Shown here: positions 5,111 to 22,854 of the stretch, one piece after another
Position numbering within the stretch: position 1 is the first letter of the stretch
Layout: each line of letters starts with the position of its first letter
Translations under genes and position numbers: made by a program
Origin: Neodothiora populina
Taxonomy: Eukaryota
Assembly (NCBI RefSeq): GCF_041146345.1
Contig: NW_027191413.1
Span: 2,480,001 to 2,544,000, forward strand
Length of the DNA: 64,000 bases
Reading direction: 5' to 3'
The notes under the pieces: generated by a model
Seen by the model: only the letters and a program-made list of their open reading frames with translations
What the model was told of the DNA's origin: nothing
Database searches by the model: none

Positions 5111-5884
5111 TCAAGGATTGTTGACTCCTGCTCCATTAGTGTGAGCAACACCAAGGTATTCCTCAACAACCGTCACAATGTCCCTCCAGTCCATCATGGG
5201 CCCGGCGCCAACATCACCACACGCCATTCTCTTCTCCATAGGCTGGAGAACATGAACCCAACCACCACTGTGAACGCCCCATTCCTGCTCAAGAACAGCA
5301 ATATGCTTACTCGTGACGGGGTGCAACCACATAGCAGTGTTCATAGCAGGAGCAACAAGCAAAGGTTTCGACCCGGAGGCAGTCTTGAGAGAAGCAGGGA
5401 GACCCTGCCGCGGCAAGTCCACCTGGCCAGTGGTATCCCAAGCGCGAACAGCAGATAAGAGCAGACCATCCGACAACCCCAGCGCCATCTTAGCGAGAGA
5501 ATTGGCAGACAGCGGCGCGACGAGCATCAGGTCCGCCCATCTCCGCAACTCTATATGCAGGATATCTGCGCCGCGAGTCCAGGGCACAGCCCACTCGTCT
5601 CGATCAGTATAGATGGCCTCGACTCTGGGTATCTGCAACAAAGAAGCCAGAGTCGGCTGCTCGGCAGACTGACCCTGCAGGAACTGCGCTGCGGAATCGG
5701 TGAGTACGACACGGATCAGAACGTCATGTGCGGCTAGCGCTGCGAGTATCAGAGGCAGCTTGATGGTCGCGACGGACCCGGTGCATGCTATCAGCAGATG
5801 GGGTTTCCCGTCGTCGTCGTGGTCTGCGGCGCGCAATGGTGCTGTAAGCGGTGATGCTTCACGATAGGCAGATGTGCTCGACAT
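5111..5884 (-). CDS. Phosphopantothenoylcysteine decarboxylase (HFCD flavoprotein, Hal3/Cab3 family)
   Basis: Motifs TGSVATIK, LHIELRRWAD, APLSANSLAK, PAMNTAMW, MACGDVG. The catalytic His, Asn and Cys are all in one polypeptide. Start placed at MSSTSAY (ATG 5884). Confidence 0.92.
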   Translation of the reverse strand: MSSTSAYREASPLTAPLRAADHDDDGKPHLLIACTGSVATIKLPLILAALAAHDVLIRVVLTDSAAQFLQGQSAEQPTLASLLQIPRVEAIYTDRDEWAVPWTRGADILHIELRRWADLMLVAPLSANSLAKMALGLSDGLLLSAVRAWDTTGQVDLPRQGLPASLKTASGSKPLLVAPAMNTAMWLHPVTSKHIAVLEQEWGVHSGGWVHVLQPMEKRMACGDVGAGPMMDWRDIVTVVEEYLGVAHTNGAGVNNP

Positions 5885-6174
5885 GCTTGATTTACGGGAT
5901 GTGTGCCTCGCACTAAGATTTCTTCCTTCAGTCAACCATGTTGATATCTGAAGTCTCCATAAAGGTCTTGGTACTGAGAGGCCGACACATGAAGAGATGA
6001 AATTAGTTGCTGAGAAATAGATCTGCGTCATTGGCTGCGCTGGTTCGATTTTCCGATCCCTCCCCCCCCCCGCATGCGGCGAACGCATTTCCAAAGCTTC
6101 GGAGGTTTCGATGACAACTTCTTTATCATCCGCCAGAAACAGACTCGCAACACAAAACCTCGAACAAATAAATC

Positions 6175-6767
6175 ATGGCAGCACGATCAGTAGCATCAGC
6201 GGTAAGTCGCCTCGACACAGACTAAGGACTGGATCATTTCGACTAATGCCTTCTCTCACAGGTCTTCCGCTCGGCCCTCCGCCCCAGACACAACCCTCTT
6301 CTGTCGCCACGATTCCAAGTCCTGCAAACAAGACTGCTCTCGCAAGAGACCCGCCAGGCCATCGACAAGGCCGTCGCTTCGGCGCCCGTGGTCCTCTTCA
6401 TGAAGGGCACCCCCGAGACCCCTCAGTGCGGTTTCTCGAGAGCCAGCATTCAGATCCTCGGCATGCAGGGCGTGAACCCGGCCAAGTTTACTGCGTTCAA
6501 TGTCCTCGAGGATGAGGAGCTCAGATCGGGTATGTGTTGCTGCATGCATACGACTGCTGATGTGCTGCGTGCGAGAGAGAGGATAACATGATGGCTGACT
6601 ATTTGCGTGCAGGCATCAAGGAGTACTCCGAGTGGCCCACCATTCCTCAGCTCTACGTCAACCAGGAGTTTGTTGGCGGAACCGACATCATGATGTCCAT
6701 GCACCAGGACGGCTCGTTGGCGAAGCTGCTTGAAGAGAAGGATGTCTTGGTCCCCGCAGACGACTAG
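6175..6767 (+). CDS. GRX5: Mitochondrial monothiol glutaredoxin, 3 exons
   Basis: [19 protein letters not shown] (CGFS active site) and [23 protein letters not shown]. Arg/Ser-rich N-terminus; introns 6202-6261 and 6530-6612. Confidence 0.95.
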
Positions 6768-7031
6768 AGAGTGTGATTGTGATCAACAATAACTGGCGAC
6801 AGAGAAATGTAGGATTCCGTGGCGTCTGTACATAATGCAATATCACATGTTCAAAACAGCAGCATCGCGAGTTCTCTGACAGTGTTCAAGTAATATGTTA
6901 TGATCTACCGAAAAAACTTGGCGATGTCGCGCATGAATGACTATCCTACTTACCAAGAGCAACCAAGTGATAAACATGAATATGACACGAGCGTGCTCAT
7001 TCATACAGCCTCAACACACATGAAGAGACCT

Positions 7032-10000
7032 TTACTCGGTTGTCAAATCCGTCCGCTGGCCATCGTCTTCCGCAGCCTTCATCAGCTTCTCTCGCTCCGC
7101 GTTCTCAGCCTTGACGATGAGATCCAAAAGGTCATTGGTACTGTTTCGCAGGCTCTTGCCAGACTGAGCCGATATGAGACTGATACTGCGCCAATGTCCC
7201 TTTCGATCATCTACCACCGTCACCGAAGGAAATCGACGAACCACGGCACCATCACGGTCACCTTTCGGAGCTGGGACGGTCAAGAAGCGCTCATGGGATT
7301 GCAAAGTCCTGTCTTCGCGGGGAATCGCGTTCTGCGTTCTCGCCGTCGACTCATCTTCAGCGTTGACATTCGGAGAAACCGGAGAATAGACGCAAGCTTG
7401 ATACATGCGAGAAAGGCGCTTCGCTTTCGATGGTACGAGTACTTCATGCTCGGTATTGCCCTCGTGGTTGTCAAGTGTACCATCTAATGCAGGCTCATCA
7501 TCCTTCATGTGCAACGCCAAGAAGGTAGGTGCCCAAGACGCCTCGCCATCATTGTCGTCTCCGTCATCGTCCGAGCCACGATCCTGGATCTCATCATCTT
7601 GGTCGGGAGTACATGTATCAGGAAGAGTCGTCGCTATTCGCTGCTTTGTCTGAAGATGTGGATGGTGAGAAAGGGCTTCTTGTGTTTCCTCTTTGAGATG
7701 ATGGCTCTCATCCACTATTCCATCTCTCAAGTGGTGCCCTTCCTCTTTGATCTCATCCTTTACGTGGTCCACAATCCTTCCGATATGTCCAGGTATGAAG
7801 CTAGGATGAGCTAACGCGAGCGGGTGCATTGGGAATATAGGGGGCAGAACTTCCAGCTCGGGATGCTCAAGCTTCCCACCAACCGCAATGGACGACCGAC
7901 GATTGCGAACTGCTGATGATGTAAAAATGTTAGAATAGTATCGCACGACTGTACCAAACGTCATTGATCGTGACTTGACGATCCACGCCCGACCCTTTCG
8001 AGCCGACAATTTAGACGTCCTCTTGCCAATGTAAGGGCTTTCAATGTTTGGTGCGTCGATATCGCAATCTGATCCATCGATATAAGCAAAGTCTTGTGTG
8101 ATGACGTTGTCTTCCTGACCAGCAGAACCGCAACGACTTTCACGAGTGTGAGATGGGTATCGGCTCCAAGCAGCGAGAGGGGCCGCCGGGGGTGGGCATT
8201 CTCTGTCCGCTTCTACCGAAGAGCTACGAGAAGGCCTCGCTTTGGTAGAGCTTACCCCCATTGCTGTATGCCAAGATAGTGCTGTTTCGCCCGGGGGTCG
8301 AAGGTGCTGCATGCTCTGACTCCTGCGTACATCAGGCTTCCTAATGATCTCGAGAGGATCAAGATCGTCCATGATCGTAGGCAAGCGTGCAGGCGTGCTT
8401 GCTGTTGATGAGCCGAAAGAAACGTTGAATATCGGCGCTTGACTCGATGGGCTTGCTGTGCCTGAGCGTTTACTGCTCGACCGGTACAATGCAGCCTTTT
8501 CTAAGTGATGCTGGTGCAAGGCCTTTTCCATCAAAGAGCCCTCTGTGCCCTTGTAAGATAATGGAATCGCCCGACGGAGAGGTCGACCTCCCGATTCTCG
8601 TCTGTCGTCTTCCTCGATGGCTTTCAAGGCTTCCACGTCAATGATAGAAGCTCGACGACGGTCGTCTCCCGATACGGAAAGGTTCAACTCATACGCGACG
8701 AGCGACTCAACAGGAGGTACGACTGCTGATTCAGGGCTTATTGGACTGAGCATGACGTTGCTAAGACGTTGCTGTTGATCTTCATCAATGCTTACAGAGC
8801 GCGTTGTATGCTGTAGCTCTGGTGAATGTCGTGGTGCCTCGAGTAGATGAGGATCATCGGAAGGGCCATCCAACATCGCATTGGCTACTCCTGTACTCTC
8901 CTATAAGACAGGTGTGCTAATGCTGCGAAGTTTCTGTTTGACCAGTCTGGGAAAGATAAAATGGAGCATCGATCGTCGTTTCTTACTGCTCTTGGTCGGC
9001 GGAATAATCGCCAATTCTTCTGTGAATTTACCGATTCGCCCGAGACTCACGGAACTGCTACTCTTTGGTAGCGAAGAATTTGTGTTATAGACCATTCCCT
9101 TCGCGAAAGCACATTGATGAGTGCTAGGGTCAACTTGCTGCACCTCTGAAGAGACTCTTTCTCTTGGAACAGGGCTAGGTTTTCGGCTCAAAGTCGAGCC
9201 TTCGCCTGCAATCCCTTCACAGACTGACGTATTATTCTCTACTGGATCGTGCGGATCATATGTGGAGAATCCAATGTCGTATGGCTTAGGCGCCATTTTA
9301 CTCTCACTGCTGGGACTTCGACTGTATACTGAAGACGAGGCATTAACTCTGGATCGTCTACACTGAGAAGATCTTCGCCGAGTAGCGAGACTGGTGCTAG
9401 ATAGGACTCGTTTGTGGGTGGGACTTGTTGTTGACCATATGACACTGTTCAATGATGCGTGACCTAGAACCATCTGGCTCCACACAGTACTGGGGTTGTT
9501 GGAATTTGAAACCTGAGTCTGCTGCGATTGAGATCGTAGGTGTTGGGAGATATGCATGTCATGTAAATGCAACGAAGTATCAGATGCCTCGGATTGTGGT
9601 CGCACAGGCTGTGTGGCGGGCGAAGCAGGAGCGTCGGCAGGCTCGCGACTGGACAAAGCTGCTTGTGGTTGACAAACCTCCTTTCGAGGAGATCCTGACA
9701 CGACTGGTGTTTCTTTCTGGACCGAGACCGAATCTTGTCCTCTTCTTGGTGATAGAAATTCCTGAACGGTGGATAGCGGGGATAGAATATCTTGCAGTGA
9801 AAACTGCCACGATGTTTCGAGCTCGACCATATCGGGGGTTAGCTGCCATTTCTGATGTTCTGGGGCGAATGGTTTTAAGTCGCTGGAATCGGAGCTCGAT
9901 CTCGCGCGGCGCATTTGTACAGGTGGATCACAGGCATGCAGACGTCTAGGCAGACTGATTGAGCGATGCTCAATATGATGCCCATGCTGAAGTTTCAGTG

Positions 10001-10604
10001 TTCTGGGCTGCCGGTCATATCGGGTTGTTCCTTCTTCCATCAACTCGTCTTGTTGGTGGGCATTGGAGGAAGCAAGTGCGTCTAGTTGGGATTGGTTGAT
10101 GTGTAGTGAGAGGGCATCGGCATCGAAGTCCAGTTTGTCATGATCTTCGTCAAGGAAAGAAGAGGGTGTCTTCAGGTCTCGGGTGCCTGGAGCTACGCAT
10201 GGATGCTTGCCAGCAAACCTTCCCATTCTTCGTCCTAGTCTTGCAGCCTTCGTACCGCTCTTGCTAGATGACAGTGTCTTGCGGCTCAATTGCCGGCGCA
10301 GCTTGTTGGTCAATGTGGGAGAACATATAATACTTTCGTCAAGGCTAGGCTTTCGACCTGGGAGATGAAGCGCATCGGGATGATCATCCGGCAGCGCAGC
10401 TGCCACAAAGATTCTTTGAAGCTCTATATCTTCCGATGTCTTGACATCCGAGCCCCGAACGCTGGACTCATCAAGCAAGTACTGGTCCTCGTGGATCCGT
10501 TGACTCCTGATCGCCCTAAGAGATCTCCATTGTTTCAGTGGCCTGGCAGGCTCTTGTGGCGAGGAAGACCGCGAAGGAGCTGTGCAGCAGATTTTCGCTG
10601 CCAT
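7032..10604 (-). CDS. Large (~1190 aa) low-complexity Ser-rich hypothetical protein interrupted by one in-frame TAG at 8903-8901
   Basis: ORFs 8901-10625 and 7032-8876 are in the same frame, separated only by TAG plus 8 sense codons (…RSISTPVL*ESTGVANAMLDGPSDD…). ATG 10604 to TAA 7032 is 1191 codons. The C-terminal half has motif-like blocks (WSRYPSHTRESRCGSAG, GGKLEHPELEVLPP, RRFPSVTVVDDRKGHWRSISL). Confidence 0.7.
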
Positions 10605-11834
10605 TGCGAAGGATGCTGCAGACACTCAACCAAATGCTACCAATAGGAGACCAAAGAAATTATGACAAGATCTATGATAAGAGTATGAAGTGCTGGTCAT
10701 GGTAAGAGAAGAAAGAGGTGCCATATTCAGATACTGCCCAAGAGTCTGGTTCTTGAGGCAGGCGCAATGGAGGTCAACCACGACGCTTACCATATTTTCA
10801 GTACTTACATCTTCATCGAGTTGGCTGCCACTCGAGGACGGTTACTAACCTGTGACCTAACCTGACTTGAGAACCTTGGAACACTTTGCCTATGGACGAC
10901 AGATTGATCCTACAGGACGAGGGCAATCAAGTTACCTCTACACTTTCCTTCTGATGATGAGCTGGGAATGTGCATTTTGCTTCAGCCGGCACACAGTGTT
11001 GCACATTGATGTCGGGTCATTTTCACATTCAAAGGAATGCCGGTCCAGAGTGGACGATTATGACCATGTGTGACAGATGCATATCAGCACTGCAATCAAA
11101 CGACCGGATATACCAACCACTCAGCAGGTACCTTATCATTGCAGGCTCTCGCATAATCGAGTATATTGTGTAGCTTATCGGCTCAATCACCATTCACTTT
11201 TCACCTCTTGCAGACTTGCATGAGGGGTCAGCAACGACCGTGCCATGCACGATGGATCTAGTCTCAGCTTCTGCGGCCATTGATAAATTGCTTTGCTAAT
11301 GCTGTGCTGTAGGGTTCGGAATCAAGCTGTGATGCGCACGCTATCATTGCTAGCAACACTTGAAAATCACAAGATAAAAACGCTGCGTAGAGAAATTCCG
11401 AAGCATATCGACCGGCCAAGTGGACACAGTGGAGCAGGTAGAGTCATGAAGCCCAAGAATGCACTGGAGAGAACAAATCACGACGGGGCCGAAGACGGCC
11501 ATCGTTTACCTACCAAGTGGAGTGGAAGAGCGTCGAGACCGCGTTTACATATGGTAAAACCACGGACTATCAAATGTTTGCGAACACAAGCAGCACCGAA
11601 CAATACGAAATGGCGCGATCAAAAAAAAAAGCCGCGGGGCAAGATGAGCTTGGCGTGTAAAGCACGGGCGCCTAGGTGGGTAGGTACAAAGCCAGAGGAT
11701 TTTTCCCATCCTTCCCAATGGCCAGCTCTTTTCTTTCCTCTACCATTCCCCTTCATATTTCGAGAAGAGTCAATCGTTCTTCTCTATCTTCATTCTTTTC
11801 TCTCTTTGGAACTACCTCTCCAAAAATCGCCAAT

Positions 11835-14200
11835 ATGGTTCAGTCCTCCATCTTGGGTTTCCCTCGCATGGGACGCCTCAGAGACCTGAAGAAGGCAAAC
11901 GAGGCATACTGGGGCGGCAAGCTCTCCAGAGACGAGCTCCTCGCCGAGGGCAAGAGACTCCGTCTTGCTCACTGGCAGATCCAGAAGGATGCCGGTGTCG
12001 ATGTCATTCCCAGCAACGACTTCGCTTTCTACGACCACGTTCTTGACCACATCCAGATGTTCAACGTAAGCTGCTAGCAGACCCTGATCAACGCCCCGCA
12101 TCACCCCACTGACTTTTTATTCTCCAGGCCGCACCTGAGCGTTACACCAAGCACGGTCTCGAGCCCATTGACGAGTACTTCGCCATGGGTCGTGGTCACC
12201 AGAAGGATGGCATTGATGTTCCTTCCCTCGAGATGGTCAAGTGGTTCGACTCCAACTACCACTACGTCAAGCCCACTCTCCAGGACAACCAGACTTTCAA
12301 GCTCGCTGCCAACCCCAAGCCTGTCCGCGAGTTCCTTGAGGCCAAGGAGGCCGGCATTGCCACCCGCCCTGTCCTCCTCGGTCCCGTCTCTTTCCTCGCC
12401 CTCGGAAAGGCCGACCGTGACCAGACTGTGGAGCCCATCACTCTCCTCGAGAAGCTCCTCCCCGTCTACGAGCAGCTCCTCAAGCAGCTCAAGGAGGCTG
12501 GTGCCGAGACCGTCCAGATCGACGAGCCTGTCCTTGTCTTCGACCTTCCCTCCAAGGTCAAGGATGCCTTCAAGCCCGCCTACGAGAAGCTCACCGCCGC
12601 CGCCGGTCCTCAGATCGTCCTCGCCACCTACTTCGGTGACATCGTCCACAACCTCGATGTTGTTGACGCCGCCCTGAAGAACGTTCACGCTCTTCACGTT
12701 GACCTTGTCCGTAACCCCGAGCAGCTCCAGCAGGTCATTGAGCACCTCGGCCCCAAGCAGGTCCTGTCTGCTGGTGTCGTCGATGGCCGTAACATCTGGA
12801 AGACCAACTTCAAGCGCGCCATCGAGCTCGTCGAGACTGCCGTCCAGAAGCTCGGAAAGGACCGCGTCATCGTTGCATCCTCCAGCTCCCTCCTTCACAC
12901 TCCTCACACTCTCGAGAGCGAGAAGAACCTTCCCTCAGAAGTCAGAGATTGGTTCGCCTTCGCCTCCGAGAAGGCTGTCGAGGTTGCCATCATTGCCAAG
13001 GCTGTCACCAACGGCCCTGACTCTGTCCGCGAGCAGCTCTCCGCCAACGCTCAGTCCATGCAGGCACGTGCTTCGTCTAGCCGTACCAACGACCCCAAGG
13101 TTAAGGAGAGACAATCCCAGGTTACCGCTGAGATGCACAACCGCCAGTCTGAGTTCACCACTCGTTACGCACAGCAGAAGGAGCACCTTAAGCTCCCCAT
13201 GTTCCCTACCACCACCATCGGTTCCTTCCCTCAGACCAAGGAGATCCGTATCTCGCGTAACAAGTTCGTCAAGGGCGAGATCACCGCCGAGGAGTACGAG
13301 AAGTTCATCGAGAAGGAGATCCAGGATGTTGTCAAGATCCAGGACGAGCTCAACCTCGATGTATACGTCCACGGTGAGCCTGAGCGTAACGACATGGTGC
13401 AATACTTCGGTGAGCGCCTCGAGGGTTACGTCTTCACCACCCATGCTTGGGTCCAGTCTTACGGCTCTCGTTGCGTGCGTCCTCCTATCATCGTCGGTGA
13501 CATCTCTCGTCCCGCCCCCATGACCGTCAAGGAGTCCAAGTACGCTGCCAGCATCTCCAGCAAGCCCATGAAGGGTATGCTTACTGGTCCCATCACCTGT
13601 CTCCGCTGGTCTTTCCCTCGTGACGATGTCCACCAGTCTATCCAGGCTCAGCAGCTCGCTCTCGCTCTCCGCGACGAAGTTGTTGACCTCGAGGCTGCCG
13701 GCATCTACGTCATCCAGGTTGACGAGCCCGCTCTCCGTGAGGGTCTCCCTCTCCGCTCCGGCAAGGAGCGTGAGGCTTACCTTTCCTGGGCCGTCGACAG
13801 CTTCAAGCTGTCCACCGCTGGTGTCAAGGACTCCACTCAGATCCACTCTCACTTCTGCTACTCTGAGTTCCAGGACTTCTTCCACGCCATCTCCGCCCTT
13901 GATGCCGATGTTCTCTCCATTGAGAACAGCAAGAGTGACGCCAAGTTGCTCAAGGTCTTCATCGACGAGGCTTACCCCCGTCACATCGGTCCCGGTGTCT
14001 ACGACATCCACTCTCCTCGCGTTCCCTCCGAGCAGGAGATCAAGGACCGCCTCGCAGAGATGCTCCAGTACCTCAAGCCTGAGCAGCTCTGGGTCAACCC
14101 TGACTGCGGTCTTAAGACCCGCCAGTGGAAGGAGACCAAGGAGGCGCTTACCAACATGGTCAACGCCGCCATTGCCTACCGCCAGAAGTACACCTCCTAA
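11835..14200 (+). CDS. MET6: Cobalamin-independent methionine synthase, 2 exons
   Basis: [66 protein letters not shown]. Intron 12066-12127; strongly C-ending codons suggest high expression. Confidence 0.98.
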
Positions 14201-18455: not shown

Positions 18456-21400
18456 ATGGCACAGCCAACACAGTCAGCACGTCCAGTCACTGGCAACGTT
18501 GTCAGCGTACCAGCCCCTGTCAGCGTTCCTATGGTTGGATTTCCGCCCGTCCTCATCCGTAGTGATCCCTATGCGGACCTTCGCCCCTTCATTGAGCACT
18601 TGTGGCTCACCAGACCAGCAATGTGTCTGAATCTCTACCTTGATGACTTTCCTTACAGGATGGATGGAAAACCAGCAACACAACAAGACGAAGACATCTT
18701 CATTCGCCGCTACTTCGACGCAATCACATTCCATGTTCAAGGTCCACGATTCCTCAAACAGGCACTCTACGGCATAGCCAAATTCAATCACGACCAAGCC
18801 TCAGCTTTTGCGATGGAGTGGAGAGCCAAGCACTACGTCTTTTATACTGACTCTAGTGTTCTCAATGCCATGTGTGCTGATGTCGTTGACCCCAAGATGT
18901 TCTTTACTGCCGAGGAAGCGTATGAGCGAGAACCCGCCTTCCTCCGCTGCGCTATCAATGTCATTCGCAACGACCTTCGCGCACTCAAGGAAAGTCAGAG
19001 CCAGGAAATGTCTTTCAGCTCAGCGAAAGTCATCTCCCAGCCAGCAACAATCGCCAAGTCTGCAAGGGACATTCAATCGCATATTGAAAAGGATGTTACT
19101 GCTTCGTCAACTGGCCTAGCTGAGGTATCAGCAGCGAAAGAACCAGGAACAAGCCATTCCAGTAGGCATCTGGCTCACATTTGTAAAACATCACTAACGC
19201 CGCAAAGTAGTAATTGAACCCGCGAAAGTCGAAATTCACGAAGCTTCGGGAGCTACAGCAACCACATCGTCGTGTGAACCTCCTGAGACAGAGAGCAAAC
19301 AGTCAGCCGACTCACCAGGACAAGAGAACCTGCCAAAACCTAGCGTTTTGTCAGAGTCTAGGAAATCATCACACGGATATCAGGTCGCTCAAAGAAATAG
19401 GCCAAAGGCAACTCCGGCGTCAGCAGATCCAATGCTCAAGCCGCAAGGCCCAATCTACGATGGGATTACAAGCAGCTACGCTTCGCCTGGTCTTTCTTCA
19501 GCATCTAGTTATCCATCGTTGTCGTATTATCCACCCCACTTCATGCCGCCCAAGACCGCAAGAGCAATGCCTGCGCCAAGCTACAGCGTTCCGATCTGGC
19601 AAGATGAGGGTGGAAGCAATATGCGTTATGCTAATGTCCCAGAGTACTACTACAGAGCTAACGACCCTCGACAGACCAGGGTGTCTAGCTATGACCGGAC
19701 CGCAGTGCTCAACACACCTTGGCCCAACGGACAGATAGATGCCACCAACATGGACCCCGAGTCGTTCAGCCGACTCTCCATCGACAAGTTTGACCGCGGT
19801 CAGAATCGTGCTGGAAGCAGGAGAAGCTCGGTTTATGCGACCTCGTCTGGTCATGGATCCACTCAGCTAAGAGATGAACAGTTCACAGAAACACTGCCTG
19901 ATGATACATACCAGAGACGTGTATTTTCGGACCAGCCAAGGGTTCGGCAGCCATCTTCCTCTTTTGGATCGGATCCAGGTCTGTTCAATCAGCAAGTCGG
20001 ACAAGACGCAACTGCCACCCATGGAGAAATGTCTCTTGATCCAGGTCAGGCCACGAGACTCCATCCGTTCCTTGATACCTGGATACCCCCTGATCGTAAC
20101 GACATCCGTGACTTGATCCTGACACGCGTGCCTGAGCATATCAGCCCTCGGACCGTTTTTGAGTTTCTTCAGAGATACGCCAGAGTCATGAAGGTCACAC
20201 CTTACCCGCCGAAGAGGGCAACTTCACCCTCGTACCTTTTTGTCTGGTAGGTTTCAAGAACGGTCAAGACCAGTGAAATGCAAGGAGGGAGTGCTCATGT
20301 ATTTCCCAGGTTCGAGAGCACAGATGAAGCGAGAAAGGTTCTGGCTCGTAAAGATCTAATTCTGCAAGGATGGAATGTCTTTCTCAAAGTGCCTTGGAAA
20401 CATAGCTACCAGAAAGGAGACGCCAAACTACATGGACATTGTGCACGGCCTCGCATGCAATCAGACTCACAGGACAACCTTTCACAACCATCTCACATGC
20501 CAGGTATGGTCCAAGGAGATACGCGTTTCTTGTCGCACCCGCTTGGTCATCGCAATAAATTCTTCATGGATACCCAAATTGATCGCTCACAACATAACAT
20601 CAATCCGTATGCTTACCAGTACGCCTACGGATCCAACATTACTGGTAGTCCAGGCACAACCTATGAAGCTTCTAATGATGGGATGCTGCCTGCATCAGGA
20701 GCTAGCACACCACACACAAAGAAGGGCAATAAGAAGAAATTTAAGAAAGGGAATCGAGCTGAAGCGCCTCAGGGTGCCGCAGAGACTGGTGGTCCCTGGG
20801 AGCAAACATCTGATTCCTACCGTAAGCACCAAGCAGCGTCCAGGAGTAAAGCCCTGCACTATGCTCATGGTGATTCCTCACCATACAAGCAGTCGATGGC
20901 TAAGGGATATGTTGTGCATTCGAATATGCCAACAATGGCTTCTACCCAACAACATGCCGGACCTGAGGATAGTCCAGAGTCACAGAGTGTCGCAGAAGTC
21001 TCCTCATCGATGACAATGCACACAACACTCCCGGTACATCGAACTACTTCACACGATCTCACATTGTCAGAAGGAAGTCAAACACTAGAGATACTTCGGC
21101 GGGAAGAAACACCAGCCCCGTCGCTACCTAAGAGTCCTGACGTTGTAAGTGCAGGAAGTGAAAGTGGACCCAAGTTTCCTAGTCTTGCGAAACACTTGTC
21201 TTTATCCAATGTTGACCTTGGTCAGAACAGTGTCACGGGGACAATGAACACACCTCAAAGATCTAATGCTGTGGCTTCGGAAGAGACCACACCCAAGGGA
21301 ACTGAGGATGTGGATGAAAGTTTTCAGACTGCTGCCGAGACGCCAGACTCAGTGGGCAGTACGAGGTTGCCCGAGAATCAAGCGCAACCGCTTGCAAGTC

Positions 21401-22854
21401 CCTCAGCCAACGAGACTCTAATCGATACCACTATACAAACTTCCAGCTCTATCGAGGATGCTACCGTAGCAAAGCCTGTACAGGCCCAAAGAACAGATGA
21501 TGCAGTGAAGGATTTGAACAAGTCCTTGATTACGGTCAAAAGACTAGAGTCTAAGAAAAGTCAAGCTGCATCGAAGAACTTAGAAGCCATCAAATCTGGA
21601 CCGAGCAAGACAGAATCTCTTAGTCCATTTGCGCGATCTTCACAACGTAAGAAAGATAAAGTCAAGACATTAACAGAGCATCATAAAGCGGGAAAATCTA
21701 ACGCAAGCGATGAAGCAAACTCGTCCGCAAGGCAGTCCTCGGTCAGATCTGCCGATGAGGTATACCTTACCACTATTGAAGAACCTCCAGCTCCTTCGAG
21801 CTTAATTAACACCCCAAGGCTTGGACCGCATGACATTGAGCAGCATGCAGAACCAAAGACTGCAGCTGCAAAAGGACTGCTCACAAGAATCTTAGGAAGC
21901 GCACTTTCTATAACGGCAAAAGGAGACAAATCTAGCTCTAGCACTAAGAGAGAGCAAAGTCCGGCGGCCGGAGACCTGGTCGAAGTTGAGCGGTCTACGA
22001 ATGCACAGCAGGTTGCTCCAGACCACAGCGATAAGCTAGCAGGTAGCTATCAACACGCCCAACCCACGACTTATAACGCTGTGCAGCTAGATCCTCACCT
22101 TGATTTACGAGAAGTCGTGGGTGACAGCTCTGCGATTTACGTTGATCAAACTCTTCCAGCTGACCAGCCTTGCCCAATCGACCCACAAGATGTCGTCTCA
22201 AATATTCCTGGAACAGGCACACAAGAAGTCAACACAGATACTGCGAAGAAGACCAAGAAAAAGAAGAAGAAGAGTAGTAAGCGTAAGACTGTTGCCACCG
22301 TGACAGGCAACGAAGTGGTTGATCGCCCCGTTACCACGCAGGATGAAGACGCCTCATCGACGGCGACCTTGCAGACACACACCCCCGAAGGCTCTAGATC
22401 TGGCTCAGCGGAGCCCATAGTCATCGAGTTATATGGACCTGTTGGTACCGAGCCGTCTATGCAATCTGGCCCTCATGTCATTCTGAGGAGCGAGGGCAAG
22501 AGCGCAAGTGGTAAGATACTATACACTTCGGCCTCGGCAGATCGTCCTCGAGCGAAGCATTCTCTCACGGCACTAAACTCCCTGCTCTTAGAACGAGGTG
22601 AACATAGACCTTCTGACCTTTTGAAAACGGATGGCCATCACCAAAACGAAAATGTCCAGCAATCGGTGAACAAGATGAAAGCGCTGAAGCATCATGAGCG
22701 GATCGCGAAGCTCAAAACCAAAGGCGACTGGGAAGGTCACGATGCAGAGATGCGTAGATGGGAGCAGGTGAGACATCTTTACCAGCCAAGGGCTACCGGC
22801 AATCTGTGATCTTTACTAATCGATGATCAATATCAGGAACGCGAAGATAAATGA
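18456..22854 (+). CDS. Large mostly disordered protein (~1400 aa) with one central RRM-like domain and Lys-rich NLS-like tracts, 4 exons
   Basis: ORFs 18456, 19348 and 20278 are joined in frame by introns 19162-19210, 20247-20309 and ~22768-22836. RRM-like segment DLILTRVPEHISPRTVFEFLQRYARVMKV…YLFVWFESTDEARKVL…LILQGWNVFLKVP; tract KKTKKKKKKSSKRK. Confidence 0.7.

Follow-up and report, generated by a model that had tools for sequence, protein, structure and literature searches.

The minus-strand frame 10604-7032 of the 64-kb window (the whole stretch of DNA analysed) comprises 1190 codons and contains one internal stop only, the TAG at 8903-8901 (codon 568) in the context GTC TTA TAG GAG AGT (Table 1). 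Translation of this frame confirms the arrangement given in the preliminary description, two same-frame open reading frames parted by a single TAG. The second one is 622 aa long from stop to stop and 614 aa long when counted from ATG 8876. The base at 8902 was also recovered in the DNA contig of run X1 (depth 28; X1 is possibly a source of the same DNA), which reads TAG there and has no differing letter across 6575-11500. The gene is single copy, no paralogue being found in the genome, and is flanked by genes for a cobalamin-independent methionine synthase (12113-14200, plus strand) and a flavoprotein (5111-6088, minus strand). A contig of run X2, which is listed as DNA, shows a spliced GT..AG joint at the intron 6530-6612 (plus strand) of a gene that we take to be monothiol-glutaredoxin-like; X2 therefore looks like RNA, and none of its contigs lies on the present gene.

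Table 1 Features of the interrupted gene, with positions in the 64-kb window
Feature	Position	Strand	Remarks
N-terminal half	8904..10604	-	567 codons from ATG 10604; serine/arginine-rich; without Pfam family; 47% identity to P0117
Conserved block before the stop, residues 519-567	8904..9050	-	33/49 identical with P0117; motif across homologues
In-frame TAG, codon 568	8901..8903	-	candidate edited base A8902; X1 contig agrees; P0117 ends at the same residue
Predicted mRNA hairpin	8878..8923	-	loop AUAGGA (8904-8899) encloses the UAG
In-frame spacer, stop to next Met	8877..8900	-	8 codons, length as in P0002-P0006
C-terminal half	7032..8876	-	614 codons, ATG 8876 to TAA; most conserved family motifs; without Pfam family; 56% identity to P0118
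Rival splice signals	8891..9050	-	donors 9050 (GTGAGT), 9031, 8986; acceptors 8901 (the TAG itself), 8891; without consensus branch site

No Pfam family was detected in the protein or in any of the aligned members (0 in 11/11). The best scores in the ESM Atlas were 0.87, with a TCO89 share of 16-40%, and are sub-threshold and a lead only; the Atlas model has a pLDDT of 0.36. Because of the missing Pfam family and the low model confidence, the protein is probably a disordered, phosphorylation-rich regulator. Among the named homologues, those of Delphinella and Aureobasidium match it best, and hence the host is regarded as a Dothideales fungus (Dothideomycetes), which places it beyond the Sordariomycetes and Pezizomycetes, a case that had been considered in the preliminary description.

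With the first half as query, the search found protein P0117 (568 aa), whose last residue corresponds to the one just before the stop. The best match of the second half was P0118 (617 aa), which starts at the Met equivalent to ATG 8876. Sequence identities are 47% for P0117 (over its length) and 56% for P0118. P0117 is the sole protein ending at the site among 238 mapped, and a repeat search for N-terminal halves gave nothing beyond it among 19 matches. The new observation is hence that the protein of a relative appears to break at the same codon as the present TAG, with its second half beginning from the same Met. The spacer between stop and Met measures 8 codons, is of identical length in P0002-P0006 and keeps the frame; a Met at the position of ATG 8876 is also found in P0002-P0006, P0008, P0011 and P0019. 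When neutral decay was simulated up to roughly half of the divergence observed, each half acquired 7 to 10 stops on average and remained open in 0/200 runs, which indicates that both halves have been under selection. Given the conservation of both halves and a stop at this very codon in a relative of about 50% identity, a private mutation or base-call error, previously rated equally possible, is now unlikely. The mid-gene stop is real and probably long-lived; shared with a distant relative and bordered by two intact halves, it is probably bypassed on purpose, in support of the earlier proposal of a programmed stop.

Trees were calculated from 13 to 20 fetched proteins, comprising the closest matches and outgroups; the tree of the N-terminal half left out P0023, which has no cut point, and rows of less than 330 aa. 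In separate reconstructions P0117 and P0118 were each sister to the full-length protein P0002, and the present gene lay outside the pair. As each half-protein grouped with P0002 in its own tree, the two look like halves of one locus; this grouping suggests a single locus for a relative that is known as two proteins only, linked through the trees. A clade of the two stop-bearing rows was rejected by the AU test in both half trees (p 0.007 and 0.006). The stop-bearing lineages thus do not form a clade, and the stop would have arisen either twice at one codon or once with a loss in P0002, which is nested between them and has Phe at the site. The public Dothideomycete gene model P0039 groups with the Trp-bearing P0008; it is missing four stretches, one of them around the site, and its predicted introns could hide a stop.

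At the stop column, 115 homologues of at least 654 aa have C (27), R (20), G (19), S (15), W (3), other residues (23) or a gap (8). A conserved TAG or an alternation of TAG and TGG, named earlier as a sign of editing, was not borne out in this variable column. Among the nine full-length relatives that are closest, seven carry C, R or W here, with 0 or 1 base of difference from TGG, and none carries Q, Y, K or E; for C and R, the distance to TGA is likewise a single base. Metagenomes contributed 18 loci, eight of them readable at the site (GGC, GGC, AGT, TGC, TGC, TGT, TGT and TGC). These eight are all distant and all sense, and the stop-bearing relative was not among the 18.

The UAG had been placed in the terminal loop of a hairpin, and the predicted fold agrees. 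The drawn 46-nt hairpin 8923-8878, with ends picked by eye, coincides with the fold of minimum energy (-16.1 kcal/mol, z -3.59, 0/200 shuffles), and A8902 is unpaired in the 6-nt loop AUAGGA at all seven flank sizes from 20 to 150 nt. In a fixed 61-nt window centred on A8902 the z value was -2.74 (1/200 shuffles). Within the 81-nt window 8860-8940, which had been put forward for RNAfold, the z value was only -1.34 (21/200 shuffles). Folding of 1128 TAG triplets of the 64-kb window placed 351 in a hairpin loop of some kind and 16, with the site among them, in one at least as stable; among 233 segments along the gene, that of the site comes 30th. Synonymous codon randomisation (n=2000) kept the hairpin in 1184/2000 cases, so its stability is in part due to the peptide, and gave equal stability in 182/2000 (p about 0.09). 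Against synonymous shuffles, hairpin strength is modest. The base matching A8902 was in a hairpin loop at none of the eight sense-codon loci (about six distinct, all distant). Two residues before the site, Val occurs in both stop-bearing rows of the alignment versus 0/11 full-length rows, and its codon is paired within the predicted stem in the present gene; shared ancestry could explain this marking as well.

We tentatively favour, with somewhat less than even confidence, one gene whose default product ends at residue 567 and whose 1190-residue product would be made only after deamination of A8902. Deamination in the mRNA would cause the UAG to be read as UGG and Trp to be inserted; it would be confined to a restricted stage or condition, and the unedited message would be lost to nonsense-mediated decay. 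The enzyme would be either Tad2-Tad3 with an activator unlike the Sordariomycete-type Ame1 or one of three OTT_1508-type deaminases of the genome. Editing prefers A or U at -2 (W-2), and W-2 with a purine at +3 occurs at 258/1130 TAGs of the 64-kb window; the match in context is weak, since U-1 and G+1 come with any UAG. Nonetheless, the context described earlier is present as claimed, and a UAG with U-1, G+1, G+2 and A+3 in a predicted loop fits the published preferences for U-1, purines at +1 and +3 and a hairpin loop, as far as given in the accessible parts of PMC11156358 and PMC9600606. The conservation of both halves around a spacer that keeps frame and length would also fit, as would the predominance of C, R and W at the site in close relatives. 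Against editing stand the rarity of Trp in the 115 homologues and the Phe of the nested P0002, the p of only about 0.09 for the hairpin once the peptide is fixed, the single case of this kind in 984 kb, the intact matched domains of SPO22 and the RID-like gene, and a lone Ame1-like protein that appears to be without the editing residues.

Two DUF726 genes were found in the genome, with two Ame1 candidates scored. The long one is presumably a Mil1-like paralogue. A TAG within it was rejected as a candidate, being an intron acceptor; the in-frame intron of 51 nt ends with this TAG (L003, G000:C4:558474-559535), and alternative CAG acceptors lie nearby. The S/D/H spacing of the Ame1-like DUF726 protein is exactly that of FgAme1 531/589/629; it has A-K-S at 500-502 and D-R-K at 546-548, positions which were mapped by counting rather than with the FgAme1 sequence and are uncertain by one residue. 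According to the part of the preprint available, editing by FgAme1, the product of a duplicated gene, needs MV500-501 and E546/R548, KN being ancestral, and the Sclerotinia orthologue of the ancestral type was unable to replace AME1 (bioRxiv 10.1101/2023.10.18.562923). With A-K-S and D-R-K in place of MV and E-x-R, the known activator is thus absent. The Tad2-Tad3-Ame1 machinery invoked at the outset was therefore not borne out, as K-S occupies or adjoins the MV site in the sole Ame1-like protein, of which no second copy was found in the genome. A TAD3-like gene is present by motif, and Tad3's N-terminal domain is split by an intron. Three OTT_1508-type deaminases scored above the cut-off (L004-L006; G000:C8:186211, C14:504661 and C4:1180861), with the HAE...CxxC motif readable in their frames; an unspliced scan of the three 10-kb loci gave no C2H2 motif within about 5 kb of these genes. 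The genome hence has a deaminase whose class is known for editing UAG loops, without a link to the present gene. One of the OTT_1508 genes lies, by eye, near a dynamin-like gene. The genome contains SPO22, SPO11 and an RID-like methylase, which would permit a sexual cycle. Neither SPO22 nor the RID-like gene, both corrected genes in Fusarium according to the available part of PMC10776026, has a stop inside its matched domains. A SIKE-family search for SCI1 gave no match anywhere, controls included.

Other explanations of the stop have to account for the same observations. It is rather unlikely that the gene has been split, the stop being real and each half made separately, with transcription of the second starting internally and its translation at ATG 8876. 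The Met of this ATG predates the stop, being present in the homologues named above (P0002-P0006, P0008, P0011 and P0019), a purine at -3 gives it a fair start context, no domain spans the stop and both halves are conserved; however, the spacer retains frame and exact length, none of six polyadenylation-like and TATA-like hexamers tried occurs within 400 nt of the stop, the halves would have had to fuse again in P0002 or the gene to split twice at one codon, and the hairpin is left unexplained. We consider unlikely, too, a programmed readthrough in which the UAG is decoded as Gln, Tyr or Lys by a few percent of the ribosomes, with the short form as the major and the full-length form as the minor product. 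A hairpin enclosing a stop melts during decoding, as the one found here would. Readthrough would need no special enzyme and allow the stop-to-sense change in P0002, and the column of 115 homologues tolerates many residues, but the classic CAA-UYA and UGA-CUA signals are both absent and the downstream fold is ordinary (z -0.70 and -0.76, folding without pseudoknots). In yeast no UAG context is leakier than the UAG-G of this site, and the A that precedes the stop favours readthrough as well; basal UAG leakage of about 1-2% in mammalian assays is small for the supply of what is the more conserved half (both from the accessible part of PMC4615788).

That the homologue P0117 ends at the same codon also bears on the two remaining alternatives. 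An accident, i.e. a recent nonsense mutation or error here combined with coincidence or a gene-calling artefact in the relative, is quite improbable. It would agree with a sense residue in 107/115 homologues (a gap in the other 8), with sense codons at 8/8 readable DNA loci and with the AU rejection of a stop-bearing clade, and the sharing rests on one relative with two proteins, linked by trees. Against it, a second break at the same codon out of 1190 is unlikely by chance, P0117 was the only one of the mapped proteins to end there, and the X1 contig agrees with the TAG. Improbable, too, is alternative splicing, whereby an in-frame intron (9050-8901, 9031-8891 or 8986-8891) would remove the stop and the retained form would encode the short protein. 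The 96-nt in-frame intron 8986-8891 pointed out earlier does exist as sequence, an open frame is restored by 17 of 19 listed donor-acceptor pairs, and the donor at 9050, the only perfect GTRAGT of the gene, is in phase with the TAG as acceptor. A consensus branch site, however, is missing in 18/19 pairs (of the comparison introns, two have CTGAC and one CTCAT), and every pair removes part or all of a block with 33/49 residues identical in P0117 versus 47% overall, whose conservation argues that the stretch 8904-9050 is translated and not an intron. P0117 has Ala and Thr in the places of the donors 9050 and 8986, which rules out GT at both, although the protein is compatible with a GC donor at 9050 and with the donor at 9031.

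Set beside the systems described so far, each compared through the accessible parts of the sources, the candidate edited gene is most readily related to the premature-stop-correction (PSC) genes of Fusarium graminearum, which depend on Tad2-Tad3-Ame1 (PMC10776026, bioRxiv 10.1101/2023.10.18.562923). It shares with them a single in-frame UAG with conserved, intact coding sequence on both sides, U-1 with purines at +1 and +3, an A in a predicted hairpin loop, a gene without assigned function, and repeated gain or loss at one site; this comparison was made by description, as Table S1 is without sequences. For the Fusarium genes, stops gained more than once at one site, and ancestral states other than Trp, are also on record (PMC10776026). 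The present host, in contrast, belongs to the Dothideomycetes and has a single Ame1-like protein without MV or E-x-R, and editing in Fusarium is known from RNA, whereas the present gene is known from DNA and protein sequence. The stop correction of OLD-ZAO and CHE1 by OTT_1508-like deaminases (PMC12754623, PMC11169179) is similar in the UAG in a loop, in U-1, in being Ame1-independent and in the deaminase type, with three members in the present genome; unlike those genes, the present one is not a zinc-finger gene and adjoins no deaminase, and no C2H2 motif was seen near the deaminases. Programmed readthrough in eukaryotes (PMC4615788, PMC5100048) likewise involves a conserved stop, coding constraint beyond it and UAG-G, but the present stop lies mid-gene in an ancestrally continuous frame, without a CAA-UYA or UGA-CUA signal and with ordinary 3' structure. 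The gene hence behaves like a premature-stop-correction gene that departs from Tad2-Tad3-Ame1 in activator residues and host class, and from OLD-ZAO on one count.

Among fungi, mRNA editing is on record for Sordariomycetes and, as an independent system, for Pezizomycetes, and A8902 offers a single-base test point for Dothideomycetes. No report of mRNA editing in Dothideomycetes was found in the accessible parts of the literature (including PMC13123824, PMC10041177, PMC7306014 and PMC13431901), subscription papers being mostly beyond its coverage. A review of 2020 named pseudothecium-forming fungi as uninvestigated for editing (PMC7306014, in the part available), and Qi et al. recorded stops at PSC sites in other classes with editing there undetermined; per-taxon states of these sites are given in the supplement and may list Dothideomycete stops (PMC10776026, in the part available). 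It is conceivable, though we hold it with some doubt, that Dothideomycetes have an mRNA A-to-I editing of their own, independent of Ame1, and that the present gene is a conserved switch turned on by it. Such editing may take the form of a further origin of Tad2-Tad3 activation or of a stand-alone OTT_1508 deaminase acting on distant genes. If editing is true, an enzyme other than the known activator would be required; if it is false, a mid-gene stop of long standing would still be left, at which the gene is either read through or split. A stop of this kind makes gene callers annotate two genes.

A survey for frames of at least 120 codons flanking one stop covered 984 kb (920 kb plus the 64-kb window), i.e. 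about 4% of the genome, and misses stops near exon ends. It gave 64 pairs (29 TGA, 21 TAG, 14 TAA). Ten of these scored as coding on both sides, with six intron calls, two introns by inspection, one normal gene end and the present site, which is the only one of the 64 for which neither an intron nor a shadow frame nor a normal end accounts. With one such pair in 984 kb there is no sign of many such genes. The Fusarium genome measures about 36 Mb. From its 71 PSC genes (PMC10776026, Table S1, in the part available) about 2 per Mb would be expected, and hence the outcome of the survey is compatible both with the presence and with the absence of a system. Another frame of the window that is split by a TAG (20248; frame 19432-22809) was rejected as a candidate, the TAG being contained, by inspection, in the donor of a 63-nt in-frame intron (20247-20309, plus strand); this otherwise ordinary frame, with an apparent RRM domain by eye, serves as a control. 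Elsewhere, near 1123436 (plus strand) of G000:C3, a purine-rich simple tandem repeat holds the frame open behind a TAG.
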